Positions 1 through 33,120 of a DNA stretch of 64,000 nt are shown piece after piece (positions within the stretch are counted from its first letter, which is position 1; every line of letters starts with the position of its first letter). The notes under the pieces are model-generated. The model was not told the DNA's origin and ran no database searches. It saw only the letters and a list, made by a program, of their open reading frames with translations. Origin of the DNA: Eukaryota sp. GEM-RC1 (taxonomy: Eukaryota); the NCBI GenBank assembly GCA_040285855.1, contig JAUFOQ010000001.1, positions 1,922,001-1,986,000 on the forward strand, given 5' to 3'. Both the position numbers and the translations under genes were made by a program.

Positions 1-3000
1 TAACAGATAAATCATTTATATCATATTGTGTAATTATATAAGGTGCCCCATCATAAGCGTTTGTATTATTTATATAAAGATAATCATTAGTAATACTATA
101 AGACCTCAATTTTGCAGAATATAATGAATCAATAGATAAAGGTGGTTCAAATAATAATGAAGAACTATTATCAAAATAATTTTTATTTAAGCGTTTAATC
201 ACAACATATGAATTTTCTAAAGGAAATTCTGAATTAAGATAGGGATCATCATAATCATAAATATGATTAACAATACTAATAGAATCATGATTCAAATGAG
301 AACGTGTGAATTTTTCTTTAAACTTTTCATTAGTAGATTTATTAACCCTATTTTTATTTGATGTAATGAATTCCATTTTAATTTTAGGATCATTTCCTTC
401 ATACCAGAAATTTTCTATATTGCTAGGCATTGAAATATTAAAAACTTTATTTAATGATATAATAAATAAATACGTATCCATACGTTCTTCATTCCATTGA
501 TCGTCTATATCAATATACTCATAATTTTTACCAATATATCCAACAATAAAATAATATGGTTTATCTAAATCTATTTGTATTATATGAGGCACAGTTTCCA
601 AAAATACATCTTCATCTGTTTCTCTCAATGGAAGACTTACAGTAGAATTAAGTGTCACAGTATTGTTTTCATTTAAATTGTATATCCTAAATTGAACAGG
701 ATCATTCCAAAAATTAGATATTCTCATTATCCACCCATTTCGAATCGTACTCAACGTACTATGTGAATTAATATATTCATCACTAAAATTAATAGGAATC
801 CGAACTATTTCACGATTATTTATAATAAGTAAATCATCTTTATCCATAACTTTCCCATTATTTATATACACAGTATTTAAAGGTGCAGATACTGCATTAG
901 AATGAGTATTTTGTTCAGCCTCTTGATATTCAGTATATAGAAAATTTGTAGAATCATAATTATAATTACCCACATTAATTGGTTCGGTTTCTGAGTTTTT
1001 TCTAACAATATCGTAATCAATATGATTTACCATATTCATTAATGTTCCAGTTTCATTTTCATTTGTTTCATGGGGAGTCCAATCACTTGGTTCTTCTGAA
1101 TGCTCTGGAAATGGTTCGTAGCTTGTTTCTATTGGTAGTTTGTGATTTGGTAAATCTTCTGGATCATAATCATCATCTCTAAATCTATACATTCCATAAT
1201 CAGTCAAAATGGTATTTGTTAATTTTATTTCTTCATCACCTTGTTGAAACAATTTTCTAAAATCAATCTTGTCATCGCCCATTTTAATTTGAGAGTCATT
1301 AATTTCAGTGTTGTTTATCTTTATTATTTCCGTCATCAATGAAGGTATTAATTGTGGTTCCTCAACTAATGAATTTACAAAGGTATTAGCATTTAAATTA
1401 TTTATTTTTTGCACGGTTAAATCATTGTTTTTAAATGTTAATTTAGAATCACCATTTTCCACCACAAATTCTTCAGTGTAATTTATTTTATCAGTTTTGA
1501 CTGATGGTATTGTTTGTTCTTCTAGCCATGTATTTGAATCTCTTAATAATTTAGCTCCACCAAAATCGTCAGCCGGAATACCATTAATTATCTCTGTAGT
1601 AATTTTGGTAGTTTGTATAGGTTTGTTAAATGTTATCTCTTCACCAAAAGTTATCAATAATTCAGATTCAAATGCTGGTCGATATATATAATTATTTCCC
1701 CTAGGTACAACAATTAACTTATCATGAGTAATTGCTTGATATGGTCCAATATTCCCATCCTCATTGGTTAATAAAATATTAATAAATTTTGCAAGATTAT
1801 TTTCAATCGTATACATTAATCTTCCATTTTGACTAAATAACGAAAAGTAATTTCTATAAACATGTCTTGGATTTGTCATGGCATTTAAATGCAAATCTAT
1901 ATTTATATCTGTACCAATTTTTCGTAAATAAACCTTACTATTAGAAAATACCCCATCTCTATTAGTTGAAATAATATAATAACCATTTTGTAAAGGTGCA
2001 GGGAATCCACCATATGATTCATCCCCATCTAATTCATAAACGAGTTCATCATCATCTAATGGATAATTGAGTGAACATATTCTATTCGATCTTCCTGGTT
2101 CTCTGAAATAAATTTTATTATTATAATAAAATACTGGGGCTAATCTTGTTGAACTTACATTAATACCAATATCATCATCATTAATACTTTTAACAAATGA
2201 TTTCCATTCATTATTATTGACATGTTTTTATATCTATATACTATCATATCATTTCCCAAATAAACAATATCATCAGCAGTATCGTCATTTAATATTTTTG
2301 TCAATGTATTTGTGGATGTGTCGTATTTAAATAATTTCATTTCACCAGATTCTTCCATTTGAAATACAAAACGATTATCACCACAATAAGCAATTTCTCT
2401 AATTTCAGCATTTAGTGAAAATAATAATTCACCATTACCTTCATATTCTTCACCCGCTCCTCGTGTTATAGAATCATTATAATTAATTTCACCTGAACGT
2501 AATTTTGATGTAACGATGTTTGTAAAATATTGGGTTTCTTCCCATGTATTTGAATCTCTTAAAAGTTTAGCACCACCAAAGTCATCCGCATCGACTCCAT
2601 TAATTGTAGAAATTTGTACTTCATCAAAGGTTTGTTTTTCATCCCATGTATTTTCACTTACCAATAACTTGGCACCTCCAAAGTCATCAGCAGGTACACC
2701 ATTAATTTCTTCTAATTGAATTTTATCAATCAATACTTTATCTTCATGTATTTTAATTTGCGAAATAAGTGTCACTATAGATTCTAATGAAAAATTAACT
2801 TTGTGAAAAATGATTGACCAAATAATGCATTTATAATTCCTGAATTATATACATCAATTTGTCTACAACCGGTACCAGAAATATCAGCGAGTTTTAAAAT
2901 AAATTTTGGTGAACTGTCATTTATTTTATACAGATTTGCTTGATCATTTACAATAGCCACAAAATAATCTTCATATAACCCAGTTGGTCGCACAGCACTA

Positions 3001-6000
3001 TCAAAATCAATGTACCTGTGAAACTTTCTTCATGTACTAAATAGATTTCATTATACAGTACCATATTACTGCTACAGAAAAAGTATTCATCGTTAAATGG
3101 ACTTATATCACCCAGACCATTTGCAAAATCTTGAGTATTACCAATATGGATTTCGTCTCCATTAAATGGATATTCTATTTTATATATATTAGTCCAATTA
3201 CTACCATAAATATAACCATTCATATAATAGCTAACATCAAAATTAATTGTTTTTGTTTCTAAAATTGTAGTAGGATTATCTTTGGATCGTATTTCAAGAG
3301 TATTATTATCAGCATCATAAAATCCAAACTTATCATCAATAGAAAATAATTTACATTTTAAATCATCCAAACCAGTTATCAATAATGTAGTAGTATCCCC
3401 ATTTATGTAATATAAATATCCAGTATCAAATATAACATTCATAATTACAATATATTCATCATTTGATATTTGTAATAGATAAACAACCTCTCCCTCTAAT
3501 TCAAATGATTTTTTTTGTGTAAGTTGGTTCAGGAAAAGTATGTATAGGAAAAGAAATTTCATTAACTCCAATATTATCAAATATCTGATTCTTGGTCCAT
3601 ATGTTTTCTTCATTGATTATATTTGTCGGCATGTATGTTGATAAGGGTTCGCCATTTAATTGAGTAACCCATAAATTATCAATAATTTGCGTTTCTTCAA
3701 TATCAGATCTAATAAATTTAGATGGATTAATTCCATTTAATGTGGTTGTATTAATTCCATTAAAAGTTTGTATTTTATCATAGGTATTTGCTGATCCTAA
3801 TTTTGCAATATTACCTTCAGCATATGTGGTAGTTCCAAGAGTTATTGATGCATCTCCATTTTGGACAATATTACTTAATTGGATATTCTTATCAAATAAA
3901 TTAATAGCGTTTGAGCCATATGTAGTTCCTAACGCTTCAAAAACACCATTAACTTTAAACCTGAAATTCATTTCATCATAGACATAAAATGGAACCGCAA
4001 CCGAATTGGAAAATGTATATTTATAAATACCATCACTTAATTTTAAATATAAATGATTTTCATATTCCCAAGCATCAAAAATTTCATGTGAAAACTTATT
4101 TGTAACAAATGGCATTTCTGGATTATTAATTTCGTGAATATTTCCGTAATATAAATAAGAACCTGATTGTCTAATATAACGATCACCGCCAACATAAATA
4201 ATAGAATCAGGTAAATCATATTTTTTAACAAAATATCCAGCTTCATGTACAAAATACTCATTAAATTCATTAATCAATACAAATTCTAATTCTTTATTAT
4301 ATCCTTGAATTGCATTAATGTTTATTATTCGTTTAAACTCTAATTGAATTCCATTAGATGAAATCTCCATTTTATATTTTTCCAAGTAGTCACTGATTTT
4401 CAAATATAAATAATGTTCAAATAAATCAACAAATATATCGATAACGTTTTCATCAAATTGCATGTGATAATGCTTTCCCGTATTTAAATTATATAAGGTT
4501 GCCAACATTTTACGATCATCACTATACTTTCTAAAGGTAAATAACAAACTACCTCCTTCTTGATATCTAATAGTCCAGAGATTAGAAATCTCAACTTCTC
4601 CAGCAACTTTAAATGGAGCATAATAATCTAAAGCAATTAATTCATTATTATAAAACCCAAAGTTGTGATGTACATGTCGTTCTGCTAATTCAATTCCACT
4701 ACCCACATCTTTATCTTCTTCTTTATACATGAACGCACTTGATTCATATTTAACATACCAATAATCATCTCGAACAATAATTTTTTCTGGATCTACTATA
4801 GAGTGATCATATTCTTCACCACCATTTGCTTTCAATTCATCATAGGTACCAACTTTGGATCCAGATAAAAACTTTCCATTGTTTAAATAGATAAAATCAT
4901 TAGTTGAATCGAGCTCACTTGGACCTTCATCTAAAATATAAAAATCATTTCCATTGCGTAGATAAACTCTATCAGCGACATGAACATCAGTAATATCGTC
5001 ATTTATAGGTTCTTCATTAATCACATCACCCAATACTTTTAATATTTTTATTCCACCAAAACTCTTTAAAATTAATGCATAATCATAACCAGTAAATGGG
5101 ACAATCCAAGCTTTATGAAATTCTCCAGTAATCTTTTTATATGGCGGATTTTCAATTGACAAATCTACAACAAATCCAAAGTCATTATCATATTGAAATA
5201 AATAGTTTTGATATATATCTATTTTAAATGATCTGTCAATCTTAATTGGTGCAAAGGGATCACGATTAATATAAAACTTGTTTAATGTTCCACCTCGCAT
5301 TACCCAATTATCTCCAACTCTAATTAATTCAGCAATATTATCTTCAACTATTTCTACTAATGAAAAAGTTCCAAGTGTAATATCAGAGACACCAAATCCA
5401 TTAAACAATTTATTATTAACCATTAAAGATGGATCATTATTTTGAAAAATATCATTAATTGAAATTGTCCTATTTTTTGTTTTTATTAAATCTTTTGAAT
5501 AAGATGTACCATTGAGATTTAATGGATCATTCAAAAATAATTCACCCTTATGACGTTTAATTGAAGAGGTTAGTTCTTCGGAATCTTCGTCCGTCTCTTT
5601 TAATAAAATTTCATTAAATGTTTGAGGTTCAGTAAACTCGTTTTCTCCATCCAATCGAGCAATTTCACCTTCCTTGTATTCGGTTTCTCCCAAGATTATT
5701 GACTCATCTCCATTTTGAACAATTTGATCCAATTCAATTGTGTCGATATATTCTTCATCATCTTCATCTATTTTGGTCAATTCAATCGTTCCATCTCCAT
5801 AAAGAGTATCCCCTTTAATAATTGGTTTATCAAATGCGAACCCTTTAGAATTTATCCCAATAGCACCTTCCAACTCATCAACCTTTAATTTGATATCGGG
5901 AAACGTTTGTGTTTTTACCCAGGTATTTTCTTGTTTTAATAATTGATTACCACCAAAATCTTCAGCATCAATTCCATTAATTTTATTAACATCTATTTCA

Positions 6001-7244
6001 CTAAACGTTTGTTCTTTGGTCCATGTATTTTCTTGAGTCAATAATCTATTACCCCCAAAATCATCAGCATCAATTCCATTAATTGTTTCAACCTTTATTT
6101 CATCAAAAGTTTGGTCTTTAATCCAGACATTTTCTTTATTTGTTTGCGGAATATAATCATATAGGAAATCGTCAATAATTTCTTCTTCATCAATGATTCG
6201 TTTAATGGAGAACTTATCAGCATTAAAAGTTGTTGGTCCAATATTAACAGAATTAAATTTTGCATTATCTCCTTCTTGGATTATATTTTCAATATCAACA
6301 TTTCCAATTTTTTTATCAGTGTATATGGTTTCACCTAATAACATTTCGTCATCACCATTTTGTACAAGTTTATCCCAATAAATTTTATTTTCCAAGGTTT
6401 CAACATAATCTGTATCATATGATGTTGTTAATATAGATAATGGTTTTGTTAATGATGCTCCATCAATAGATACATTTAACACGTTTCTAACATTCAAATT
6501 TGATGTTATTTTTAATGCCTCATCAAGATAATATATATTACTATTTCCAATCAATAATTTTTCCAATTTCAAGTTTGTCATTTCTAATCCGGTATCATTT
6601 TTCCATATTTCATAATCACCAATATGAATACGATCAAAATTAAAATCATTGATATAATCGTTTAATATAATGTCATTAATTTTAGCGTTTAATAAATCAA
6701 TATATTCAGAATCTATTGTAAATGCTGGATGACTAATTTCATTGGCTGTTATTGAAATATCATTAATCAAAGTTTCGTCATCTTTTACTATAATATTACC
6801 AAACATGGTTGAATCCAATTTAGCAGTAAAATGTTTACCAACTTTAATTGAATAACTAGAGTCTTTTAAATTCCATAATAATAATGTTTTATTAATTTCT
6901 TCATTCCAATCATGACCAATTATTGTTGAATTAATTCCACTTGAAATATTATTTCCAATTATCGTTGAATTATTTCCACTAACATTACTTCCAATGATTA
7001 TTCCATTATTGGTTTTATTTATAATATTTATTCCAGACGTTCCTAAATGAGATTCAAGATTTGAAATATTTATTCCATCATTAGCTATGCCATATCCTAA
7101 AGATATTGCGTCAGTGTAATTTTTAATAATTCCTCGTTTATTAGTATTACTCAAAGTTAATGCGATGGAATTTAATAAACTATGATTAACTCGATTGGGC
7201 AATGTTGATCCATATGAATTTGATCGATAATCATACAATACCAT
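1..7244 (-). CDS. Giant (>2,400 aa) fibre/adhesin-like repeat protein, split by frameshifts and running off the window edge
   Basis: ORFs 3501-7244, 2948-3613, 2784-2993 and 2155-2775 join through small indels at about 3510, 3015, 2807 and 2227. An unlisted frame then appears to stay open from about 2230 to 1. Five copies of INGxxA(D/E)DFGGxxLLxxxNTWxxxQ are spread across the pieces. Confidence 0.7.
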
Positions 7245-7284
7245 TTTATCTATCTGAAATAATACATATTACAAAAAAAAATAT

Positions 7285-7824
7285 TTATACAAAATCTACA
7301 TCAGCTTCATCAACTAGACTATTTACCATGTAAGCTTTGGTTGTAACTTCAAAATCAGATACATTAAATGAACAAACGAGTCCTACAAAACCAATTTCTT
7401 TTCCAACAGACTGTTGGTATATCATATGACTTTCAATGTCAACAGATGAAAAGAAATTGCTCATGTTTGGATGAGTGTGAATCCATCCATATACATATTT
7501 AGTATCACCAACAAATTCTAACAAACGCACAGCTTCATCAGAATCATCTAAAATATCAACAATAATTGACGTTCTTGATTGATTTCTTGGTATAAATATT
7601 TCATCAATAACATTACTTCCGGATTTACCAATAAGCAATGCTCCCATCTCAAGCTCGGGATTAGCATCATTTTTTACAGTGTTCATGAAAATATCAATAA
7701 CACTATTGGAGACGTATAAATACTCTTTTCTTGGTTTTTTTCTTGCGAGTGCAGAAGGAAGAGGAATTCTTAGGCGTTTGCCCAATTTTGGCGCTTCGTA
7801 TGAACCACGATTGAAGTTTGACAT
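7285..7824 (-). CDS. JAB1/MPN+ (JAMM) metalloprotease, deubiquitinase-like
   Basis: LEMGALLIG plus GWIHTHPNMSNFFSSVDIESH, a complete E...HxH-x7-S-xx-D motif. Confidence 0.9.
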   Translation of the reverse strand: MSNFNRGSYEAPKLGKRLRIPLPSALARKKPRKEYLYVSNSVIDIFMNTVKNDANPELEMGALLIGKSGSNVIDEIFIPRNQSRTSIIVDILDDSDEAVRLLEFVGDTKYVYGWIHTHPNMSNFFSSVDIESHMIYQQSVGKEIGFVGLVCSFNVSDFEVTTKAYMVNSLVDEADVDFV

Positions 7825-7921
7825 CTAGTAAAATTAAATATTCATTTTTATGCATTACCTTCATTTTTCTTACTTAGGACCAAGTGATCTATATATGTTT
7901 GCTACAATATTGCTAGTAACC

Positions 7922-8401
7922 TCAAGTTTTTTTATTATATGTATATGTACAAACAATCGCAATATTTGGAGGACTGTTATCTGGCATATAAGCGCTAATA
8001 ACATCAATATTCATGTGTCCAGTCTCATCAACACTAGAAAACGGAGTGGTATGACCAGGATGAGTATGAATCCATCCCATTATTTGCTTTTCTGGTTTTG
8101 TTGATAAAAAATTGGTTAACTCCACACCTACTTCATTTGAATGTATAATATCAATATTACCATTGGTTCTTATTTGATCTCTTGGTATATATACCTCATC
8201 AATTACATCATTTTGACCAATGAGTATTCCTCCAATTTCTGTATTAAGGGGATCATTAGGTACTCTAATTGTTCGATCTAAAAATGTTTCAATTACTTGA
8301 TTACTAAAAAATACATAACGTTCAGGACTTTCTGATTCATACAATACACATAATTGTTGTGCATCATTATTACGATTTCTGTGACTCGTTACGTATGACA
8401 T
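7922..8401 (-). CDS. JAB1/MPN+ (JAMM) metalloprotease, paralogue 2
   Basis: TEIGGILIG plus GWIHTHPGHTTPFSSVD. Start moved to the ATG at 8401 because the ATG at 8425 lies inside the promoter-like motif. The C-terminus may be cut by an indel in the A-run near 7930. Confidence 0.88.
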   Translation of the reverse strand: MSYVTSHRNRNNDAQQLCVLYESESPERYVFFSNQVIETFLDRTIRVPNDPLNTEIGGILIGQNDVIDEVYIPRDQIRTNGNIDIIHSNEVGVELTNFLSTKPEKQIMGWIHTHPGHTTPFSSVDETGHMNIDVISAYMPDNSPPNIAIVCTYTYNKKT

Positions 8402-8450
8402 ATATATTAAAGCGAAAATATTCATTTTTAGAATAAATATTATTTTTTCT

Positions 8451-9020
8451 TTATAATTCTAAAATGTGATATTCAGAATGTGGAATAGGCATGACATTAC
8501 AATGGGGAGCTATACAATATTTTGTTGTTAAACCTCTTCCTAAATAATTTTTAGGAATATGATATGTACCAGTTTCACATGATGCATTATATGAATTTGT
8601 AGTTATTAACAAACATATAGCTCGTTCATTTTTAAATTGAGCAGTTGCTTGATTTAACAAATCAATTCCATCTAATCCATGTGTTGATTCTCTTCTAACC
8701 AAAGCCCATCCCATGAAACTTAATCCAAACATTGCTGCTTGTTTTTTAACTAAGGGATCTTCTAATGCATTAACAATAAAATCATCTCCATATAAAATAT
8801 CTGGGAATATTATAAAACTAACAACATTGGATTTACCATAAAGTAAACCTGCAAATTTTAATTTTGGATTGACTTCTACATAGTGTATGAATTTCATTAT
8901 TAATTCATTAGGTAGTTTGATTTCTTGTAAAGTTGGATCCTCAATTGTTTTTACGTAAATGCTTTGAGGATATAATGAATCAATTGATTCTAACTCAAGT
9001 CGTTTTCTAGTTTTGTCCAT
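8451..9020 (-). CDS. Degenerate MPN- (non-catalytic JAB) paralogue 3
   Basis: KFAGLLYGKSNVV and MGWALVRRESTHGLDGIDLLNQ align with the two neighbours but lack E and HxH. Likely start is MDKTRKR at 9020. Confidence 0.6.
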   Translation of the reverse strand: MDKTRKRLELESIDSLYPQSIYVKTIEDPTLQEIKLPNELIMKFIHYVEVNPKLKFAGLLYGKSNVVSFIIFPDILYGDDFIVNALEDPLVKKQAAMFGLSFMGWALVRRESTHGLDGIDLLNQATAQFKNERAICLLITTNSYNASCETGTYHIPKNYLGRGLTTKYCIAPHCNVMPIPHSEYHILEL

Positions 9021-9077
9021 ATCTATTTGTGTTGAGAATAAATCATTTTTTTTAAAAAAATAAAATTTATTTAACAT

Positions 9078-10506: not shown

Positions 10507-10554
10507 ATTAATTGAATGAAAATTCATTTTTTACGTAATAAAAAATAAGGGGAT

Positions 10555-11037: not shown

Positions 11038-11094
11038 TACAATACTAAAAAATGTTTTTTTATGATAATGAAAAAAAATAATATTTATTAGCCA

Positions 11095-20399: not shown

Positions 20400-20662
20400 T
20401 TTAAATAAAATAATAAGTTATTTTATAAAATTATTTCCATCACTGATATCTATAAAATCACTTATATCATCGGTAAAAGGTATACTGGTAGACTTTTCAT
20501 ATGTATAATATATTACATATAAAAAGATAATACCATAGCAAAGATTCCTATTGAGAAAACACGATCCATTTTATATATACAAAAAAAATATTTTAAGTAT
20601 AATATAGTAATGGATGTACGTTTTGATAATGTGAATTCAAAATTAACAGTATACACATTAAA

Positions 20663-21710: not shown

Positions 21711-21750
21711 TAAAAAAAGAAACACATATAATCTATTTTTCATTTACTAA

Positions 21751-22590: not shown

Positions 22591-22613
22591 AAAATAAAAC
22601 TAAAATTTATTAA

Positions 22614-25600
22614 CTAATTTTTTTTAGCAACTTTAATTTTAGGTTCAGGTTCATCATTAACAGCTAATCGCTTTAATGATTTAGTAGTTACGTAATCTTT
22701 AATATCTTCATATTCTTCAATTACAATACCTAAATGATATAAGGCAGGATAAATCATTCTAACCAAATAAGGATTGATTGGAATCTCTCTGAGTTCATCT
22801 GCGAAAATTTCCTTTTTCCTTAATACAACTCTAGAAGTCTTTTCTCTATAACCACTAGAAAGATGATCCTTGGTTGAATGATATTTAATATCTTTACCAG
22901 CATCAATTGTATTATAATTTTGCGCCAAGGACGCACATCCAGCAGCAAAATGTTTTGAATAATCCATTGATCCCATAGATAAACCACCCATTTGTCTTTT
23001 ACCACCAGGAGTGGCATTCAAGTTATTATAAGGCATTGCGGGATTACGAGCATAGGCCTTTCTTACGGCAAAATGTTGTTGTGTTGTATATGGGACAGTC
23101 ATTACAACCAACTTTTCTAAAATTTCTGAGCCATCTTTACCAATAAAGCTCTTTAAATAATAATCTTCATGAATATTATCAATTAAATTATATGATTCAT
23201 CAACGAATAATCTCGTACCTTGATTTCCCAAGTATCGTTCTATAATACCAGATAATACATAACCCCAAGTTTCACGTTTCTTCATTGATTTGGGATTAAA
23301 TATAATATCAGCAACCCAACCACTTTTAGCAATTGGCATATTGTGATAATCTGTTACTATAGCAACAATTGATTTTTGGGCACCACTGGCAAACTTATCA
23401 CCAGGAGTTGGATAATGGAACGTGTGTAAAATAATTTCTTTACGTTGAGTCCCAATAACACGTTTTTTCCCAATAAAAGCAATTACTTGCATATCAGTAC
23501 CAGCCAAGTCATATTCATTATATTTAATATGACGTGCCTTACCATCAAAGGTATATGCTTCAAACAATTCACTATATTGTGTTATTTGAGTACCTAATGG
23601 TGGCATTCCATCCTTTTCGAAATAAACATTATCATTTACATGTTTACAATTTAATTCACTCATGTCACTCATATTAAATTCAATTGTATGTGTGGCAATT
23701 GTTGGTGTACAATCTCTAAATCTAGAAGATACTTGAATTGCATCTTCTTGAGATTCACCTTCATAATAATGAACAACATTTAAATGAATTCTATTTCTAT
23801 GAGCTTCAATAGGTCCTTTAATCATGTATTTTGAGTATTTCAATAGGGTAACTTCAATATTGGTTCCCTTGAATGTATGACTCTCAGATCCAGACTTATC
23901 AGATCCAGCATTTTTAGTTTGATTGGAATCATATGCTGCACGTACTCCCTTGACATGATGAATATATGGATAACCGCTACCGATAATACCATAATTATAT
24001 CCAGGTAAAGTCAAATGAGTTCTCTGAATAATTGGTCCATTATTAATCAACATTGACCATTTTCCCATACCATCGATCCATTCAATGAATCCTTTCTGTA
24101 TGAGATAATCCCATGTGATTAAATTTCCGTCATGTCTTATTTTATCTCTTAAACATTCCAACACACTTTTAAATTCATCAATCTTTCCTTCATCAAATAT
24201 TTCTTTAAATGGTACATAGGGTTGCATATGTCTGCCTCCATAAACCATAACATTTAAACGTGTATCAGTTAAAACAAATGTAACATCAATGGGTTCTTTT
24301 CCTTCACGTTTTGCCATCTTTTTAGAATATACATAATTATGTAATTCATCATCATTATAAACATACCCAATAGGTAAATTATCAACTAATACTTCATAGG
24401 GAACAATATTTGGATCATAATCTTCACTAAATGAGCCCAATGCTTTTAATTCATTAATATATTTAAGGTTGTCATTAGCCAATGATAGACGAACATAATT
24501 TGAAAATTGACAATGTTCTCCAATATTTTTATTTTCTGGTTGTTGAACACTACATCTAGTAGGATATTCACTTTGATGTGTTTGTTTAATTAACCATACT
24601 TTTTTAGATGCAGCACGATCAATGGTTCTAATAAGTGACATGTTTTGTTTAGAAATATTATCTCCCAAAGATTTATTTTCATAATTATCACAAACTTTAC
24701 CAACAGTAGATTCAGATGAATTTAATTCATTACGAATATAATTAGACATTTCTAAACCAACTCCATTAAAATTAATGCCTTTAAGTTCATTTTCAAAATT
24801 AGCAAAATCTGCATCATTACGTTCAAGGTATTTTTCAAAAACCTTTGTAATTTTTTTAGTTACTTTTTTTGGAATAATAGTCTTGTTAATAGAATCTAAA
24901 AAGTTTGCATAGGTTTTATACCTAATTAGAGTTTCATCTTTACGTACAGATTCTTTTGAGGGATCTAATAACAATAAAAGATTATCTCTAATAGTAATTC
25001 CTAATTTTCTAGCTTTTGCCTTTTTACTTACATTGATATTTAAAACAAATGTATCCATTAAATAAGCTGTTTGCTTAATAATTTCTTCATGAGTATGTGA
25101 TTCACGATAGCTTGGTAATAAAATCATTGTAGCAATTAAAAATAATACTTCTTCATGATTTGTTGGCCATTTATATTCTTTTACACGATTTTTCAAATAC
25201 CATGAATTATAATAAAAATTACGAATCAATTGACGAATTTCATGAGAATATGCTTCATTTAAAGGAGCAATAAAATCACAAATTTCTTCAAGGTTGAAAA
25301 ATCCTAAATACCAAAATAAACAAATAACAGGAATTCTATTATTTAGACGATTAACATCATCATCAAGTGTAGGATACATGAATTTGTTTTTAGATTGCAT
25401 TAAAAATAGACAATCTAGTCTACCCTTATCAGATAATGTTTGTATACGAAGTTCATAGATATTTGAGTATCTACCTTTACTTGCTAACAACATGTCAGAT
25501 CTTGGACCATTATCACGATTTGCTCTAATGGCATTATTTAATGGAAAATCATTACCCATCATTACAATCTTTGGAATTCCTTCAATGATCAAATAACCAC

Positions 25601-26123
25601 CTTCATCCATGCTTGGATATCTACCACCAACATTTGGAAATATAGTTTGAGCTTCATGACATAATCTAGATTTTACTAGAATTGGAAATATTTTAATAAT
25701 TGGTTTGTAAACTACTTTAATTAGTAATTCCTTTTCCAAATTATATGCATAGGCAGTTGTTTGTTCAACTACTTCTATAGCATATGTTGTGTCAGTTTCA
25801 ATACAATCAATAGGTGTTTTAGTTGGGGGTCTAATTTCTAAACAATCAACTACAGTACGACCATAACCATATTTATATGGGACCATTCTATCAAAAACAT
25901 TTGAATATGTTTCTTTTAAATTTTCTAAAGTGCACCAATCATCAAAATTTTCAAGATGTTTATTTGATGTTTTATGTTTCTTCCAATATACATCACTCAA
26001 AAGTATCATTACGCGTTCTCTATCAATTTCATCAAAAGATTTTATATATTTTTTGAAATATTTAGGATCCACTCCCAATACATTTTCTAGTTCGTAATCT
26101 TCATGGGGACGTCTGAATTCCAT
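22614..26123 (-). CDS. RPB2: DNA-directed RNA polymerase second-largest subunit, highly divergent viral type
   Basis: Intact 1169-aa ORF with DEGGYLIIEG, QPENKNIG, SQEDAI, PGDKFAS, DIIFNP, QQHFAVRKAYAR and GGLSMGSMD. Confidence 0.93.
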   Translation of the reverse strand: MEFRRPHEDYELENVLGVDPKYFKKYIKSFDEIDRERVMILLSDVYWKKHKTSNKHLENFDDWCTLENLKETYSNVFDRMVPYKYGYGRTVVDCLEIRPPTKTPIDCIETDTTYAIEVVEQTTAYAYNLEKELLIKVVYKPIIKIFPILVKSRLCHEAQTIFPNVGGRYPSMDEGGYLIIEGIPKIVMMGNDFPLNNAIRANRDNGPRSDMLLASKGRYSNIYELRIQTLSDKGRLDCLFLMQSKNKFMYPTLDDDVNRLNNRIPVICLFWYLGFFNLEEICDFIAPLNEAYSHEIRQLIRNFYYNSWYLKNRVKEYKWPTNHEEVLFLIATMILLPSYRESHTHEEIIKQTAYLMDTFVLNINVSKKAKARKLGITIRDNLLLLLDPSKESVRKDETLIRYKTYANFLDSINKTIIPKKVTKKITKVFEKYLERNDADFANFENELKGINFNGVGLEMSNYIRNELNSSESTVGKVCDNYENKSLGDNISKQNMSLIRTIDRAASKKVWLIKQTHQSEYPTRCSVQQPENKNIGEHCQFSNYVRLSLANDNLKYINELKALGSFSEDYDPNIVPYEVLVDNLPIGYVYNDDELHNYVYSKKMAKREGKEPIDVTFVLTDTRLNVMVYGGRHMQPYVPFKEIFDEGKIDEFKSVLECLRDKIRHDGNLITWDYLIQKGFIEWIDGMGKWSMLINNGPIIQRTHLTLPGYNYGIIGSGYPYIHHVKGVRAAYDSNQTKNAGSDKSGSESHTFKGTNIEVTLLKYSKYMIKGPIEAHRNRIHLNVVHYYEGESQEDAIQVSSRFRDCTPTIATHTIEFNMSDMSELNCKHVNDNVYFEKDGMPPLGTQITQYSELFEAYTFDGKARHIKYNEYDLAGTDMQVIAFIGKKRVIGTQRKEIILHTFHYPTPGDKFASGAQKSIVAIVTDYHNMPIAKSGWVADIIFNPKSMKKRETWGYVLSGIIERYLGNQGTRLFVDESYNLIDNIHEDYYLKSFIGKDGSEILEKLVVMTVPYTTQQHFAVRKAYARNPAMPYNNLNATPGGKRQMGGLSMGSMDYSKHFAAGCASLAQNYNTIDAGKDIKYHSTKDHLSSGYREKTSRVVLRKKEIFADELREIPINPYLVRMIYPALYHLGIVIEEYEDIKDYVTTKSLKRLAVNDEPEPKIKVAKKN

Positions 26124-26177
26124 TTCATTAAAAAAAAATTCATTTTTATATTAAGCATTAAACTACATAATAAAGGA

Positions 26178-27421
26178 TCAAATACTCAATTTACCTCCAT
26201 TTAATGTGATTTCGCTTCTTTTATTATGCATTCTTGATAAATCTTTTAAAACAGTTGTAAAGAATTCTAAACATTTTGGTAATAATATCTCATTACCTAC
26301 TACATTCATCAATCTCAACGCATATTGCCATGCCTTATTAATATCCAACATTAACATATTTTTGAATTGTAATTCTGTATATTTTTTCATGTAATCTTCA
26401 TAACTTAATTCGTTTTTAATATATTTCTCACACAATTCGTAATTTTTATTATATCCATTACTTTGTTTAGTCATTAATGACTTATTTAATTTATCTAATT
26501 GTTGACTTTGAATAAATGTTGGATATTTAGTTTTTAATGTTTCAAATTCAACCTGAGGAATAGTTTTTAAATTAAATCCAGGAACATAATTTTGGTACTT
26601 TTCAAAAATATCAAAATTACATTGCATTAATTTACATTCATTCCAATGAAACAAATGTTCACAACAAGCACACAACACATGATCAAAATTTTGATAATTA
26701 TAAATAAGAACATTACAATGAGGACATGATTTTGAATTTAATCCTAATTCATTAATTAACTGAACGTCGGTAATATCACATACATGATTATCATTAATTG
26801 GTTTCCAACAATCTTCACAATATTGTGTCTCACAAATAAAACATTTATTATTAATTACATAACCATTGCACATTTGACATGGTTTTGTTGGGTGAGTATT
26901 TTTGAAAATTCATTCATATTATTTTTTAATGCAGGAATTAAAATAGTTTTAATTTCATCAATACTTTTTTTAATATCTTCATTTTTAATGGTATTTTGTG
27001 AATAATCCATTAATAGATTTTTATTTTTGGATCACCTGTTAACTGAATTCTTGCACTTTCAATTTGTTTTTTCAATTCATGTGATTCCATCATTAATTTT
27101 GTAATTTGTTCATTATATTCTTTTATTTTTTCCTCACTTTTAGATTGATTAATAATAAATGGAATTTTCGCTAATTGTTGAATGAATTGATTTTGAATAT
27201 TGTGTTTGATAGTTTTTTCATAAATGTTGATGTAAAGGTGGTGCTTAAAAAATCCATTGACCATTCAGTATTACAAGCAGGACAAGTTGGTTTTAGTAAT
27301 GATTTATCCAAATGTTTTTAACACAACCTGAACAAATATTTGATTCACAATCACAAATAACTCTAAATCTTGTTTTTGTAAATTTTCGATCACACTTTAT
27401 ACACTTAAAGAGATCTGACAT
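26178..27421 (-). CDS. RING-IBR-RING (Ariadne/RBR-like) E3 ligase of NCLDV type, frameshifted
   Basis: N-terminal CIKC...CDC...CSGC...CPAC; then PCQMCNG...KCFICETQYCEDC...HVC and KSCPHC...DHVLCACCEHLFHW. Confidence 0.75.
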
Positions 27422-27455
27422 TTATTCAAAAAAAAATATTGTTTATTGTTTATTT

Positions 27456-27650
27456 TTAATCATCCTTGATTAATTCATTGATTATTTTTTCAAGTATGTT
27501 TGTTGTAATAATTCGATCTCTTTTACATTTTGTTTTAATAATATCTATAATAACGTCATATATAAACTTTTCAAATATCCATTTCATAATAATAATTCTG
27601 TACAAATAAAATGGAAATAAAATAGATATGATTATTAATAACTTTATCAT
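27456..27650 (-). CDS. Small protein with N-terminal hydrophobic segment
   Basis: 64-aa ORF with the promoter-like motif 16 nt upstream. Confidence 0.5.
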   Translation of the reverse strand: MIKLLIIISILFPFYLYRIIIMKWIFEKFIYDVIIDIIKTKCKRDRIITTNILEKIINELIKDD

Positions 27651-27675
27651 TTATTAAGTTGATTAATCATTTTTA

Positions 27676-27831
27676 TCATTTTCGAGTGGTTGAGGTCGTA
27701 GATCGAGTTATACTAGATCTCGTAGTTGGCTTTGCTTTAGGCTTTGCTTTGGGCTTCGTAGATGGCTTAGGTTTAGGCTTAGTGGTCCTAGGCTTAGGCT
27801 TAGTAGACGGCGAAGATTTTTTAGGAGGCAT
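27676..27831 (-). CDS. 51-aa very basic K/P/T/S/R-rich protein (H1-tail/protamine-like), below the ORF-track cut-off
   Basis: MPPKKSSPSTKPKPRTTKPKPKPSTKPKAKPKAKPTTRSSITRSTTSTTRK; no acidic residues; locally higher GC. Confidence 0.75.
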   Translation of the reverse strand: MPPKKSSPSTKPKPRTTKPKPKPSTKPKAKPKAKPTTRSSITRSTTSTTRK

Positions 27832-27852
27832 ATTTTATAATATGAAAAACAC

Positions 27853-28371
27853 TTATTTAGTATAAAAATAATTTAATATTCGTTTATATAGAAAGGGAAC
27901 AAAAGTGATTTCACTAAATTTGCTAAATGGAATCCATTCCAATCGAATAGATTCATAATATGGGTTAATTGTTTTCGGATCGATATTTTTATATCTATCA
28001 TTATAACTGTTTACTAGGTTTTTCCATTTATCTAAATCGTCATCAGATATCTCATGTATCTTTAACAAATATTCAGAATTGGCTATACCACAAGCATCGC
28101 ATTTTTTAATTTCAGGAATTGTAATAATGGTTGAATCAATATTTCCACTTTCTTCCATAAATTCACGATGTATGGTATGATAAATATCAACATCGTCTTT
28201 ATCAACTCGTCCTCCCAACACACAATAAGCTTTACCTTGTCGTCTGTTTTCGTAATTAAATAATAAATATGTTTCGTCAGGAGTTTTATAATATGGTAAT
28301 AAACCACCAGCTCTATAATTATCAACAGAATAATAATCTCTTTTATTTCTTCGCATGATAAATGTCGCCAT
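27853..28371 (-). CDS. Nudix hydrolase (possible mRNA decapping enzyme)
   Basis: Nudix box LGGRVDKDDVDIYHTIHREFMEESG. Confidence 0.88.
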   Translation of the reverse strand: MATFIMRRNKRDYYSVDNYRAGGLLPYYKTPDETYLLFNYENRRQGKAYCVLGGRVDKDDVDIYHTIHREFMEESGNIDSTIITIPEIKKCDACGIANSEYLLKIHEISDDDLDKWKNLVNSYNDRYKNIDPKTINPYYESIRLEWIPFSKFSEITFVPFLYKRILNYFYTK

Positions 28372-28406
28372 TACTAAATGATATATATTGCTTTTAAAAA
28401 AAATAT

Positions 28407-28907
28407 TTATACATGTACAAAGATAGATTCACACAATTTGTCAAAATACAAGTTATCATAATTATCCTCATAAAACATATTAAATGGAATGTTTTCTAAT
28501 TTAAAAGAATAATTATGTCTACTACACAAAATTAATTTAATAATTACAATAGGAATTGTCCTGGCGATTTCAATCGAATTGATTTTGTTAACCAATTTGG
28601 ATTTGGGGAACTTGGTGAAATGAAAACATTTTAATTTAGTCAAGTCAATTTTTTTGATAAACAAGCTGATATCAAAACATAGATAATGATGTCCTTTGTT
28701 GTTTCCAAAATATGCCAAATTGGATTTATTAATTTCTTTTAATGAGATTGGCAAACCAAGATAATTTATAATCCCCAACTTCACATCAACCAAATCGTTA
28801 ACTTCAAATATTGGCAACTTGATCATTTGTTTCTCACCAACTTTGATTATTTGGTGTGGATACACACAAAATAGTTCTGAATAAATGACCAAAAGTTTAA
28901 TATACAT
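28407..28907 (-). CDS. Hypothetical viral protein
   Basis: 166-aa ORF with the promoter-like motif 15 nt upstream. Confidence 0.6.
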   Translation of the reverse strand: MYIKLLVIYSELFCVYPHQIIKVGEKQMIKLPIFEVNDLVDVKLGIINYLGLPISLKEINKSNLAYFGNNKGHHYLCFDISLFIKKIDLTKLKCFHFTKFPKSKLVNKINSIEIARTIPIVIIKLILCSRHNYSFKLENIPFNMFYEDNYDNLYFDKLCESIFVHV

Positions 28908-28947
28908 TATCTTGGATAATATTCATTTTTTTAAAAAAAATTTATAA

Positions 28948-29868
28948 TTAAATCTGTAAGATTGGAACATCCTCAACCATTGCATGAATATCAAATATAC
29001 ACATGAGAGGATTTTCAATAACATCAGATGTAATTTCAAATTCTTGAACACTATCTAAATAATAATAATATTCTTTAATCATTTTAATTACTCTAACATT
29101 AGGTCTATCAATGAATACTCTTAAAATTGAATCTTCATTTTCAGATACAGAATTATATACATAATAAAACAAATTCTCGTGAGTTTTAACATATGTATCA
29201 TGTTCTACTTTAGTTAATTGTTTAAATTTTACAAAATCTAAATGTTTCAACTTGGTAGATAATGGTAACATATTTTCTCTATTTAATAGGATATAATAAA
29301 CGAACAACCCAATACAAGTTTTCATTGAACTATCTCTATATCCACCATACCAAAATAATCTAATCAATGTTAAATACGTAACCAATTCATATGCATTAAA
29401 ATTATAATTATACGCAATTGATAATAATATTGGTATTTTTAAATCTCTAAATGGGATTTCTGATGATAAAAATGGAGTCAATATATATTGACAAGTTGAA
29501 ATTTTATTAATCTGTTTTAATAAATTAAATTCAAATACTTTAATCATACTTTTAATTAATACTCTATCGTTAATATATGTATATGCCATGCACATGATTA
29601 CTTGTAAATCAAGCATGTTTTTTCTAAATTTGTTATGTGGTCTTATTTTGTTTTCATAAATCTTGAATATATCATTCAATTGATCTTCTGTTAAAATTAA
29701 ACCATATTTTTTTATTATTCCTTTAAATCTACTAGAATTAAATATCTGTTGGGAACTTTTAGTTTGTCCACCATTGATTCGATGTTTTTCTTCATTGAAA
29801 GACGTAGGAACTTCATTTTGATGCACAACATATGTTGGCATTTGAAAAGTAAAGTTTAAGAACGACAT
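28948..29868 (-). CDS. Hypothetical helical protein, weakly TFIIB/cyclin-fold-like
   Basis: 306-aa ORF with the upstream motif. Segments IFKIYENKI...LQVIMCMAYTY and KTCIGLFVYYIL loosely recall TFIIB cyclin repeats. The function call is weak. Confidence 0.4.
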   Translation of the reverse strand: MSFLNFTFQMPTYVVHQNEVPTSFNEEKHRINGGQTKSSQQIFNSSRFKGIIKKYGLILTEDQLNDIFKIYENKIRPHNKFRKNMLDLQVIMCMAYTYINDRVLIKSMIKVFEFNLLKQINKISTCQYILTPFLSSEIPFRDLKIPILLSIAYNYNFNAYELVTYLTLIRLFWYGGYRDSSMKTCIGLFVYYILLNRENMLPLSTKLKHLDFVKFKQLTKVEHDTYVKTHENLFYYVYNSVSENEDSILRVFIDRPNVRVIKMIKEYYYYLDSVQEFEITSDVIENPLMCIFDIHAMVEDVPILQI

Positions 29869-29938
29869 TTATGAGTCATAAAATCATTTTTTATATAAAA
29901 AAATAAAAGTTATTTTATTTGCTAAAACGTATTAAATT

Positions 29939-29988
29939 TTTCATTTCATTTCAATTCATTTCATTTCATTTCAATTCATTTCAATTCA
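29939..29988. repeat. (T/A)TTCA pentamer microsatellite overlapping a stop codon
   Basis: About 10 units of TTTCA/ATTCA, reading GAAAT/GAATT on the coding strand and overlapping the end of ORF 29976-30851. Confidence 0.85.
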
Positions 29989-31159
29989 TATGACAATTTA
30001 ATAAGTTTTTCATTATTCATAAAAAGCTCACTAATAGTTTTAACATCATTGATATCGATACGAACAATGAAATCATATTTAAAAATCATTACATTGGTAT
30101 ACAATTCAACTTCATTAGGATACATGTTACTTGGACTTGGAATAAAATCACCATGACTAATAAGCACTTCTTCCTTAAAGTCATCAGCATAGAGATAGTT
30201 AACCATGCAGCAAGGAGAATTATAAATATGCATTAACGCATAATATACCACATTAAATGAATAAAACATTATAGTATTAGATCCAACTAAATCTCCAATT
30301 AATTTCGAAAATGACAACATGAATTTTAAATCATGATTATCATAATAATGAGATAAAAATCCAGCATGTTTTTCAAAATGAATTTCATTTCCTTGAAGGA
30401 ATAAAGTTAATTCTCGTTCACGATATTGCATTTCTCCAGTATTTTCAGATTTAATATAATTGTTGTACAATTCTACCATTTGAGGTAAAAGCACAAATGC
30501 ATTTAAATTTAACTCAAATTGTTCAGTAATTGGATCATATGTGATTAAGTAATTAATCAATCGAAAATCTAAATTCTTTAATTGAATCTTTGCAATAGAG
30601 GTAGGAATGCTGTTATAAATTAATCGTAAAGTAGAAATATCAGTTTCTGATAAATTATACATTGATAAAAATATATCCAGACTAGCATAATAATGCATAT
30701 TGTTAATTTCTTTAAATTGCTTACGAGTAAAAATATTTAACTTGGCATCACGTTTCTTTGCTGAATGATTTGACCAATTACAAATAATATCATAAATCAT
30801 CATTCCACTTAATACCCATTTAATCAAATATTCATTCTTTTTTTCAGGCACACAATTGTATCCTTCAAAATTAATTACTTTTCTATATCTTGATTCTAAT
30901 TCAAGATTTAATTCATCTTTAAAACAGATAATGGGATATTACCAGCAGGCAATGATTTTGGTTTAGTGATAAATTCATGCTTGGATATTTTTGATATATA
31001 ATCAGCAATATTTGTTGCAGCATTAGGAATAAAATTATCTAATCTCATTCCCATTCTATAAATTTGAAAAACCTTTTTTAATTTACCATTTTTAGATTCC
31101 ATCATTGCGGTATACTCTAAAATGTTTTTATAAAAACTTGAAAGATTGCATTCCAACAT
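29976..31159 (-). CDS. Hypothetical viral protein, frameshifted
   Basis: ORFs 30908-31159 and 29976-30851 with a single upstream motif at 31175-31182. Confidence 0.55.
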
Positions 31160-31207
31160 TAAAATGGATAAAAATCATTTTTTTATAAATTTAAATAAAA
31201 AAATTAT

Positions 31208-32270
31208 TTATTTATTACCCATTAATACTAAAATATTTTCATCATATTCAGATTCACTAGTTTTCTTATATTCATGTACAAGAAAATCACCACCATCCTT
31301 TACAACAACTTTTACAAATGCTTGCTTTTGGGGAGAAGAGAAATACTCAACAATTGCATTAGTATTTTTTTCAATTTTATAACAATTATTATAATCAATA
31401 ATTGTAATTAAATCTGATCGTTTTTGAATACTTTCAGCATCCTTGTGCATTTTAAATTTAGATGACAATGGAGATATTTTCAATAAACCACAAATTTCAT
31501 TATGTAATTTTTCCTTTGTTTCAATATGTGAATGAACAATGGCAACCGGAATTCCAAATGCATGATACCCAATAATGAAATAGACCATGTTTATAGCAAT
31601 AAAATCAATTTGTTTCATTGGAGGAGCCACTTGAATAGTTCTTGGTAAATTGATTAAAGAATCAATATTTAAAGACAATTCAATAACACCACGTGAATAT
31701 GCTTCCTCATTAATATCAACTAATGTTGCATAATGTAATGGATGAATCATATTTAAATCAAATGATTTTAATTTTGTTTTTTCAATTGTTCAAATGCACT
31801 GGTAGTTTCTTGAGATAATTCATCACCAAAATAATAATCTAATGATTTGAAATAATTAGATACTTTTTCCGATTTTAATGAATTATAATCAAATACTTTA
31901 GGTGTAATGAATAAATCAGATTTAACCTTTGACAATATACCATTTTTTCATTAAATAACCCATATGTTAAATGAGAAATACATATCAATAAAAAGTCTCG
32001 ATCAAACTCAGGGTTGTCACCAATAAGGAAATGACTATCCTTGTAAATATTAAATAAAACCTGAACTGATCTTGATAAATGATCATTGATAGTAGGAAAA
32101 TTAATCACGTGATTATTATATCTAAATTGGTTAATAATATCCTTTCTCAATGAAAATAGCTTATCCATATTCAATTTACCATTTACATGCATTGAATAGA
32201 TTTGGAAATACTTATCAGGCTTACCTTTTAACTTACTGAATCGTTCAAAGAATGAAAGATACGTACGCAT
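31208..32270 (-). CDS. Hypothetical viral protein, frameshifted; probable paralogue of 29976-31159
   Basis: ORFs 31875-32291 and 31208-31750; N-terminal KLKGKPDKYFQIYSM versus KNGKLKKVFQIYRM in the neighbour. Confidence 0.5.
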
Positions 32271-32332
32271 ATTATTAGAGATAAAAATCATTTTTTTAGA
32301 GATTAAAATGTGTGATTTTTTCTCTTACTAAA

Positions 32333-33120
32333 ATGTTACCAACAATCTTACAAGAAAAGAAATTTAGTATTCCTGACTATGTAACCAAGGATTTAAATTT
32401 AATAACTAATCGAGAAATACGAGCGGTTGATGCAATATTGCATGTTTTAAAAGAAAAACAAAAACTTACTGATTTAAACAAGTATTTATATGCTCTTTTA
32501 GCCAGAACAGGTGCTGGTAAATCCACAGCATTAATAAGTGAATTATATTACGAATTTCCGGATACAAAGATTGCCGTATTAGAACCAAGAAAAAATCTAT
32601 GCATGTCTAATAAAAATGCAATTCAAGAACATTCAATGAAAGATAAAAGAGGTGCTATTACTGATGACAAGATATTTGTAGCAACTGGTGATAATGACAT
32701 GTTGAAATCAATAGAAAAAAGACAAGCGAATATTGGTTTTTATACGATTGAAAAATATCATTATACTGAATATAAAAATGTACAGTTTTTGAATTTTTTA
32801 ATTATTGATGAGGTTCACGAAATGAGTCATCAATTAGTTAATTTAATTTCTGATTTAATTGAAAAATAGAAGAATCAATTAAAAAAAATACCCCCTTTCC
32901 TATTGTTATATTAATGTCTGCTACATTTGATCCGCAATATATTTTAAATTATTTTGGAATGGATTCAGAATCTTTATATAATAGTGGTATTGTTGAAGGT
33001 GAATCTAATTTTAATATTCAAGAATTCTGGGTAGATCATGAAAAAAGAAAATGGTTACAAAGGAATCTGAAAATGAATTTCCCATTTCTACATGGAAATT
33101 AAATTATACTGATCGCAAAT
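32333..33120 (+). pseudogene. DExH-box RNA helicase (poxvirus NPH-II / ASFV B962L-like), truncated after motif III
   Basis: LARTGAGKSTAL (I), VLEPRKNL (Ia), IIDEVHE (II), MSATFD (III). The second RecA domain is missing; the retroelement follows directly. Confidence 0.85.

Follow-up and report, generated by a model that had tools for sequence, protein, structure and literature searches.

The end of a large DNA virus genome, probably of an asfuvirus- and poxvirus-related lineage, joined in the assembly through a retroelement to eukaryotic DNA of a likely anaerobic protist

A 64,000-nucleotide stretch of Eukaryota sp. GEM-RC1 (contig JAUFOQ010000001.1 of assembly GCA_040285855.1, forward-strand positions 1,922,001 to 1,986,000; hereafter the window) begins with 33 kb of nucleocytovirus genes, which a non-long-terminal-repeat (non-LTR) retrotransposon separates from repeat-rich eukaryotic DNA. 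We read this arrangement as probably the end of a large DNA virus genome from an asfuvirus- and poxvirus-related lineage, linked by the retroelement to eukaryotic DNA in what is likely a recent and largely intact integration in an anaerobic protist. The viral segment (1..33125, with genes on both strands) belongs to a genuine, strongly divergent nucleocytovirus of a Pokkesviricetes-related lineage that lies outside the sampled poxviruses and asfuviruses. This placement comes from the second-largest RNA polymerase subunit, RPB2, and from a DExH helicase that is cut at the junction. Below, we describe the composition of the segment, its relatives, the junction and the frame breaks in its genes, and then weigh other explanations.

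Composition and layout of the viral segment

The viral segment is open at the left, where it runs off the window, and differs in composition from its surroundings, with 26.8% guanine plus cytosine (GC) at 1-33,120 versus 44.8% in the retroelement (33.1-37.7 kb) and 37.3% in the remainder of the window. Stop-free frames of at least 70 codons span 91% of positions 1-33,150. This GC step and open-frame coverage bear out an earlier note on the same DNA, which had described a compact AT-rich viral block beside eukaryotic DNA rich in transposable elements (TEs). A total of 36 viral open reading frames (ORFs) were scanned against Pfam, namely the 38 ORFs of at least 80 aa minus two short overlapping ones, and 33 of these 36 lie on the minus strand. 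Matches at E <=0.001 were obtained for seven ORFs (two JAB/MPN, RING, DUF4116, RPB2, Nudix and DEAD helicase) and for none of the other 29, so that the share of genes with no recognisable motif, which the earlier note had put at about half, is in fact more than half. The scan found no TE domain among the 36 ORFs, in agreement with that note's statement that no TE is visible in the viral part. Some 30 frame breaks had escaped that note, as had the retroelement at the edge. An alternative genetic code was not invoked, since the standard code leaves RPB2 and other long genes open and each break is a switch of frame. No DNA similarity between the viral and host parts was found inside the 64-kb window, and three repeat units tried there gave no doubled telomere-type repeat. 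Neither pp220/pp62, a large double-jelly-roll capsid, a histone doublet, KilA nor 55-bp terminal repeats were recognised among the 36 ORFs, which represent only 33 kb of what should be a genome several times that length. An HK97 capsid, a portal or a terminase, as mirusviruses have, is likewise not visible in the window.

The motif AAAAATGA occurs 25 times on the minus strand of the viral part and once on the plus strand. It lies 23-29 nt upstream of 10 of the 25 hand-listed minus-strand starts, and within 6-45 nt upstream it is enriched at the listed starts (10/25) relative to all 1,039 minus-strand ATGs (2.9%; p 9e-10). According to the available text of the two sources, the poxvirus early consensus AAAANTGAAAA accommodates AAAAATGA (PMC5294985), which is also one base from AAAATTGA of mimiviruses and pacmanvirus (PMC5294985, PMC11788076). 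The motif would thus mark a nucleocytovirus-type early promoter rather than a lineage. Its presence, which had been noticed before, stands; as a pointer to the poxvirus/asfuvirus side it was rejected, since it fits AAAANTGAAAA and is one base off AAAATTGA and so is not diagnostic.

RPB2 and its nearest relatives

RPB2 (22614..26123, minus strand) is an intact gene of 1,169 aa (Pfam RNA_pol_Rpb2_6, E 8e-14) that keeps the QED, GDKF and QK motifs and the histidine of the hybrid-binding region. It had been described as strongly altered, and it is indeed extremely divergent: its best PDB match is an archaeal subunit at 54 bits, and neither African swine fever virus (ASFV)-type nor vaccinia RPB2 chains appear among its PDB matches at E 0.001. 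At the C-terminus (22614-23000), the clamp cysteines of the relatives P0003, P0060, P0029, P0122 and P0016 are missing from the window RPB2 and from P0151, which have histidines instead.

Searched against 1.84 billion representatives, the window RPB2 gives 434 matches at E 0.001, and apart from itself only P0002 (164 bits, 44% identity over 192 aa) and P0003 (118 bits) exceed 100 bits. Its closest relatives, at 44-46% identity, are RPB2 fragments in the Skoliomonas litria assembly, namely P0002 and its cluster mate P0151, both annotated as hypothetical proteins on a 4.04-Mb contig of Eukaryota sp. TZLM1-RC. Of 30 proteins whose clusters were consulted, these two alone carried an organism name. 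TZLM1-RC is described as the type strain of S. litria, a free-living anaerobic metamonad (PMC11603281, in the text available). P0002 and P0151 are near-identical C-terminal fragments about 100 locus tags apart that differ at few residues. They represent an unreported related viral region in the S. litria assembly, perhaps a duplicated one. In direct pairwise comparison, the window RPB2 scores 116 bits with P0003 and 9-57 with eight other references, including approximately 50 bits with asfuvirus RPB2s and 9-11 bits with poxvirus-type rows. A word-index search returned the window RPB2 itself as its sole match, scans of viral contigs with the window RPB2, P0003, P0122, alignment A8 and two clade motifs yielded no clade member, and a profile search with alignment A3 added none.

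Phylogenetic placement

A FastTree of 119 RPB2s, comprising rows of 850-1,500 aa from the representative search together with the window and P0151, groups the window RPB2 with P0016, P0122, P0029, P0060 and P0003. Later trees were built under the site-heterogeneous LG+C20 posterior mean site frequency (PMSF) model from 64 rows hand-picked across the FastTree, from 28 rows and from 21 rows, with one distant giant virus metagenome-assembled genome (GVMAG) from the viral-contig scan serving as outgroup material. In these trees the window and P0151 join six metagenomic RPB2s, with a Shimodaira-Hasegawa-like approximate likelihood ratio test (SH-aLRT) value of 98 for 64 rows and support of 100/99 for 28 rows. 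The window stays with its metagenomic sisters at 100/99 in the 21-row tree, from which seven rows, including two long sisters and P0151, were dropped. The window clade in turn groups with the asfuvirus and poxvirus rows (98/97 for 28 rows, 95/99 for 21 rows and SH-aLRT 91 for 64 rows), a Pokkesviricetes grouping that is single-gene RPB2 support with a long branch and three unlabelled rows in the group. Within it, the window clade, the asfuvirus rows, the poxvirus rows and the three unlabelled rows form an unresolved four-way fork.

Approximately unbiased (AU) tests reject a union of the window RPB2 with the poxvirus rows (p 0.021; two chordopox-type rows, no entomopoxvirus) and with the asfuvirus rows P0045 and P0068 (p 0.007; the only two asfuvirus rows). 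P0045 is labelled asfuvirus-like because it scores 670 bits against PDB chains 8xx4/8q3b, which we take to be ASFV entries, versus 428 against Pol II, and P0068 carries the label through its grouping with P0045. The poxvirus label of L006-L020 follows from a motif that we presume to be diagnostic, from contigs of 128-224 kb and from lengths of 1,161-1,172 aa, presumably like vaccinia Rpo132.

The DExH helicase provides a second marker. Its N-terminal third (32333..33125, plus strand; DEAD, E 1.6e-9) carries two frame breaks at ~32,865 and ~33,044, and the sequence is of the B962L/NPH-II type that had been proposed for it. In a tree of 37 rows and 204 columns it joins the L001 and L002 helicases, along with two more, at 98/96, and this group sits among B962L-type sequences that include Pacmanvirus A23. 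The family is common to asfuviruses and the sister clade, so it is not decisive for membership in Asfuvirales. L001, L002 and L003 (L001:1-16829, L002:1-15632 and L003:1-7190) are the contigs of three of the sister RPB2s, and in the window, L001 and L002 alike the helicase and RPB2 genes point apart with 3.5-6.5 kb between them. These three contigs (37-44% GC) carry RPB2, a B962L-type helicase tail-to-tail with D5, a viral poly(A) polymerase, an FtsJ methyltransferase and a TFIIB-like gene, with an additional NAD-dependent ligase in L001 and RNase H in L002. Two-sequence profiles made from six L001-L003 gene pairs have no significant match in the window.

The window also contains a D5/C962R-like primase-helicase in about six pieces (13848..16852, minus strand). 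Three weak profile matches, each below its curated cut-off, agree on this identity (PHROG primase, E 0.003; TIGR01613, E 0.003; AEP_C962R, E 0.024). The translation from 16,852 to 13,848 shows, in order, a DID motif like that of archaeo-eukaryotic primases (AEP), GIHIH and a Walker-A-like GDGGDGKT, and the Walker A and ANAHD motifs are common to this gene and the D5 of L002 (E 0.004). The earlier call of D5 thus holds for a gene in pieces. Neither the helicase piece nor two pieces of D5 had a match in PDB.

Taken as markers of rank, an RPB2 that groups with viral sequences, as expected of a virus with its own RNA polymerase, and a D5-like primase-helicase place the segment in Nucleocytoviricota, and marker trees that group it with poxviruses and asfuviruses place it with Pokkesviricetes. 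It forms an RPB2 clade neither with ASFV-like RPB2s, as Asfuvirales as sampled would, nor with poxvirus Rpo132, as Poxviridae would. The RPB2 and helicase trees, together with the B962L-type family that includes Pacmanvirus A23, therefore support the earlier suggestion of a deep-branching nucleocytovirus on the poxvirus/asfuvirus side. That suggestion would have lost its novelty had the markers nested within a described family; by the AU tests above, the window falls outside the sampled poxviruses (p 0.021) and asfuviruses (p 0.007).

The junction and the host

The edge of the viral segment is formed by a near-intact host non-LTR retrotransposon (33126..37680, plus strand; Pfam RNase_H, E 2e-18, and RVT_1, E 6e-24). 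It consists of 5' repeats, C2H2 fingers, RNase H, a reverse transcriptase and, under names that we assume from motif likeness, a CCHC knuckle and a restriction-like-endonuclease-type tail. Its 5' end faces the virus, while its 3' end at ~37,680 adjoins unrelated host repeats. The helicase frame reaches a TGA at ~33,125 after ~260 codons of an expected ~700 aa, and the 5' repeats of the retroelement start there. The remaining part of the helicase gene is not in the window, and the flanks of the retroelement are unrelated and share no duplication >6 bp, so there is no target-site duplication. Because the duplication is lacking and the second half of the helicase does not follow downstream, a plain insertion of the retroelement into the helicase gene was rejected.

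The join may have been made by insertion of the element at a host break, by recombination between its copies or by the assembler through the repeat, and the sequence by itself does not choose among these. The virus would transcribe its genes from AAAAATGA promoters by means of a polymerase that it encodes itself, in the manner of nucleocytoviruses. If the join is biological, the viral DNA would have reached the nucleus. There, a new retroelement copy could have joined viral DNA to a host break; alternatively, a copy inserted in the helicase could have recombined with a host copy, with loss of the rest of the viral arm. Both routes would account for the missing target-site duplication and the missing second helicase half. 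Chromosomal integration is likely. The window RPB2 record sits on a 3.98-Mb contig, and the related virus lies in a chromosome-scale contig (4.04 Mb) of a metamonad assembly.

The nearest viral relative was found in a skoliomonad assembly, and skoliomonad assemblies are reported at 35.8-36.9% GC (PMC11316075, in the part available). Given this relative and a host GC that fits that range, the host is likely a skoliomonad-like metamonad, an assignment at group level only.

Frame breaks and the state of the virus

Frame breaks were called with a model that takes the reading frame into account and had been trained on genes of the window itself; in control tests it recovered 30/30 deletions, 29/30 insertions and 24/30 stops. 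On the minus strand it called 26 frame switches, 23 of them one base short (p 9e-5) and 10 at runs of at least five identical bases, compared with a background of 7.2% (p 7e-6). It called no in-frame stop in the viral part. Further breaks occur in the helicase (two of the same sign), in one plus-strand gene (one of each sign) and in the RING-IBR-like gene (four by eye). One-base-short breaks at runs are the typical pattern of uncorrected long-read consensus, and with such an error pattern the virus would be largely intact. The one-sidedness of the breaks suggests poor short-read coverage of the viral part. We infer that most breaks are consensus errors at A/T runs rather than decay, and the virus may be intact. 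Recent integration is plausible, given 33 kb with no TE and no in-frame stop called, but the join sits exactly on a repeat.

Weighing the alternatives

Several points count against the reading of a recent, largely intact integration of an asfuvirus- and poxvirus-related virus. The capsid, DNA polymerase, RPB1 and packaging ATPase were not recognised within the window, and beyond RPB2, the helicase and the weak D5 match no gene of L001-L003 matches it. In the RPB2 trees the window sits on a very long stem, with 2.9-3.9 changes per site, the protein is only 23% identical to P0003 and 23-27% to the sister clade, and labelled sequences of egoviruses, entomopoxviruses, mirusviruses and Proculviricetes are absent from the trees. 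At the junction lies a 4.5-kb element from a class that is usually multicopy, a classic site of mis-joins, and a host GC of 37% does no more than fit the skoliomonad range. As to the breaks, the model took 6 of 30 test stops for gene ends, about 5 of the 26 switches may be boundaries of overlapping genes, and the breaks are clumped: D5 has seven, RPB2 and 3,504-7,244 none. In its A/T run lengths the viral part resembles a 27%-GC reference locus, and these lengths are not globally capped. Slippage in a repair-poor host would look similar, and real decay may therefore be at work. The alternatives that follow concern separate questions (the join, the state of the virus and its taxonomy), and our confidence in them is not meant to sum to one.

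On taxonomy, the described Egovirales may include the lineage as a long-branch member or be its sister group. If it is a member, only the host link and the endogenous state would be new; we regard membership as a live, if doubtful, possibility. The available text of the egovirus study (10.1101/2024.03.23.586382) describes Egovirales as a third order within Pokkesviricetes, with structural genes like those of asfuviruses, links to Parabasalia, a few basal members from sediment and aquifer and a need for its own VLTF3 profile. The sister clade of the window likewise is neither poxvirus- nor ASFV-like, P0003 reaching 167 bits to ASFV-type chains compared with 670 for P0045, and it may itself be Egovirales or one of the basal groups listed in GVMAG v2 (PMC13524828, as far as its text is available). 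However, this clade is not sister to poxviruses in the RPB2 trees, where the four-way fork is unresolved; there is no histone doublet or KilA match among the 36 ORFs, with 33 kb in view; and the window is 23-27% identical even to the sister clade.

On the state of the virus, the breaks could instead be genuine slippage deletions at A/T runs in a host with weak mismatch repair, leaving a dead virus. Viral insertions in Acanthamoeba decay through mutation, TE colonisation and recombination, according to the accessible part of PMC12210455, and here the clumping of breaks by gene, the truncated helicase, the uncapped run-length spectrum and the two TZLM1-RC RPB2 records, both C-terminal fragments differing at few residues, all agree with such a course. 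We nonetheless consider a decaying integration somewhat unlikely: about 30 breaks with no in-frame stop called at 73% AT would be unlike ordinary neutral decay, the promoter motif and its spacing are well kept, and no TE lies within the 33 kb.

On the join, mis-assembly through the retroelement repeat could have linked the chromosome to a virus that was free or episomal, or to a provirus from another locus. The junction at the exact 5' end of the element, the unrelated flanks with no duplication >6 bp and the one-sided breaks, which suggest weak short-read correction as if viral DNA were scarce in the library, speak for this. Even so, a mis-join still requires a host element copy adjoining viral DNA, related RPB2 pieces lie on the 4.04-Mb skoliomonad contig, and frame breaks also occur in the host TEs of the window. 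In addition, long reads usually span 4.5 kb. Mis-assembly is thus, in our judgement, quite unlikely.

Finally, it is highly improbable that the segment is a mirusvirus or another large DNA element whose fast RPB2 was placed by long-branch attraction, as the very long stem, the lack of a capsid gene in view and trees with no labelled mirusvirus could suggest, since the window joins short-branched sisters rather than the poxvirus branch or eleven further rows, all of which are long, the helicase independently gives the same placement, the helicase-RPB2 arrangement is common to the window and its sisters, and P0003 scores 116 bits versus 9-57 for eight other references.

Other genes of the window

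The left end of the segment is occupied by one or more large repeat-containing genes (2..7244, minus strand), comprising ORFs 3504-7244, 2951-3616, 2158-2844 and 2-2227 with a common ~34-residue repeat. These ORFs are paralogous to each other (E 1e-11 to 1e-24), show 102-bp repeats in the DNA and have no notable Pfam, PHROG or NCBIfam match; a fibre-like structural role may be proposed for their product or products. Two JAB/MPN metalloproteases follow on the minus strand. The first, deubiquitinase-like (7285..7824; Pfam JAB, E 4.5e-8), has an intact HTHP..S..D motif, and the second (7922..8425; E 2.4e-5) is a paralogue 38% identical to it with the motif also intact. In this group (7285-9077), a third neighbour is JAB-like in size and lacks both the metal motif and a profile match. 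DUF4116 repeats followed by a RING finger lie at 17936..19274 (minus strand; Pfam E 1.5e-13 and 2e-9), and a Cys-rich gene in five pieces (26178..27421, minus strand), seen in a three-frame translation, gives no profile match and is presumably of the RING-IBR-RING-like ubiquitin ligase family, to judge from its motif pattern. The JAB/MPN pair, the RING gene and the RING-IBR-RING-like gene make up a ubiquitin-manipulation set.

The Nudix hydrolase of the earlier note is borne out (27853..28371, minus strand; Pfam NUDIX, E 0.001). A small CxxC...CxxC protein (19331..19570, minus strand) is possibly RPB9-like, as had been claimed, on matches to RPB9 chains in PDB that are non-significant (E 0.33-0.96) and leave that claim a weak lead. 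The likeliest candidate for the VLTF3 of the earlier note is the gene at 29976..31159 (minus strand), which has no Pfam, PHROG, NCBIfam or Atlas match; 29,979-30,803 likewise lacks an Atlas match, and no viral ORF matches VLTF3 in Pfam at E 0.05, nor do 25 chosen ORFs at E 5, so that the call finds no support. The gene at 28948..29868 (minus strand) is a possible TFIIB/cyclin-fold transcription factor, a lead that comes from sub-threshold Atlas feature matches to Pox_A8, TFIIB, BRF2 and ORC6 (0.79-0.84); hhalign comparison with the TFIIB-like genes of the relatives was not significant, and two structure predictions for 28,951-29,868 were poor (predicted local distance difference test scores of 34.6 and 37.9), with uninformative fold searches from both. 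A three-piece gene at 19585-20399 (minus strand) has no profile match and carries a YALQEYI motif, which we take to resemble ATP-grasp ligases. A very basic ORF of ~52 residues (27675-27831), rich in Lys, Pro, Thr and Ser, is possibly DNA-condensing. The tandem array at 21255..21710 (40 bp x 11.4 copies, 96% match) is AT-rich, contains short palindromes and lies inside the sole plus-strand island of the viral part; as a guess, it could be an origin-like repeat.

The repeat-rich eukaryotic DNA to the right of the retroelement (37681..64000, 37.3% GC) holds a DDE_1 transposon, zinc-knuckle and other TE remnants, and TCP-1 chaperonin fragments. The DDE_1 transposon (40521-42607) has perfect 25-nt terminal inverted repeats, subterminal repeats and frame breaks in its transposase. 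The TCP-1 fragment occurs in three diverged copies (46970-47202, 53570-53875 and 59962-60261) within a repeated ~6-kb unit and is perhaps carried by a mobile element. A 513-residue ORF at 61314-62852 (minus strand) has a kinase-like HLDCRLPN motif and no Pfam match at E 0.01.

Significance and comparison with known systems

What is known of giant viruses in anaerobic protists comes almost entirely from metagenomes and from scattered gene transfers. Poxvirus ancestors have been proposed to infect anaerobic metamonads or ciliates in the egovirus study, whose available text contains no link through a virus block in a host genome (10.1101/2024.03.23.586382). The viral block described here, long and to all appearance young, lies in a chromosome-scale contig and has its closest kin in the genome of a free-living metamonad. 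It would tie virus and host together directly on this side of the tree. It also offers a host clue for the metagenomic sister clade and makes the capsid type, gene content and activity of the window's lineage testable from existing reads, and the retroelement edge is a testable hint as to how a virus with no known integrase becomes fixed in a chromosome. The boldest version, which taken as a whole we hold unlikely, is an intact, perhaps latent provirus that a host non-LTR retrotransposon joined to the chromosome. Its lineage would be a new one within Pokkesviricetes, at the level of a family or order, and would infect free-living anaerobic metamonads with one of the most divergent functional viral RNA polymerases yet seen, its active-site residues kept and its clamp cysteines lost. 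If that were true and the host in culture, it would give a first laboratory handle on the anaerobe-infecting branch, the proposed source of poxviruses.

No published description of a giant virus in skoliomonads or Metamonada, or of an anaerobe-hosted Pokkesviricetes integrant, was found in a search whose scope left out most subscription journals. The main text of the skoliomonad genome paper, as available, does not contain the words 'virus', 'NCLDV' or 'endogenous' (PMC11316075), and that of a survey of 7,103 eukaryotic assemblies does not mention these strains (10.1101/2025.04.19.649669, in the part available), although its supplements may list the region.

Compared with Asfuvirales (African swine fever virus, pacmanvirus and faustovirus), the window has a helicase of the B962L-type family that includes Pacmanvirus A23 and a weak C962R AEP match, its relatives L001-L003 have poly(A) polymerase, FtsJ and D5 beside the helicase, and an A-rich TGA early promoter is common to both (PMC11788076, in the part available). 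Unlike Asfuvirales, its RPB2 has no ASFV-type PDB match at E 0.001, scores ~50 bits to asfuvirus RPB2s and is rejected as a joint clade (p 0.007). Poxviridae (Chitovirales) share the broad RPB2 group, an early consensus AAAANTGAAAA that AAAAATGA fits (PMC5294985, in the text available) and, as a lead, the Atlas match of 28,948-29,868 to Pox_A8, but the window RPB2 scores only 9-11 bits to poxvirus-type rows and a joint clade is rejected (p 0.021).

Egovirales, a proposed order, resemble the window as a Pokkesviricetes-level lineage apart from poxviruses and asfuviruses, with anaerobic metamonads and ciliates proposed as hosts in the available text of 10.1101/2024.03.23.586382. According to the same text, nearly all that is known of them comes from gut metagenomes, and their host links consist of scattered transfers of genes to Parabasalia and rumen ciliates, whereas the viral part of the window is a contiguous block of more than 33 kb inside a chromosome-scale contig, and its closest kin belong to a free-living metamonad. 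The giant endogenous viral elements of protists, such as the Acanthamoeba insertions (PMC12210455, in the part available), are likewise compact, compositionally foreign blocks beside TE-rich host DNA, but they involve another virus class and another host, and the edge here is a near-intact non-LTR element. Endogenous giant viruses as a kind are thus known already, while the lineage, the host link and the retroelement edge are new. Other examples of the kind reportedly include a punuivirus in Chlamydomonas and a mirusvirus integrant in Aurantiochytrium.

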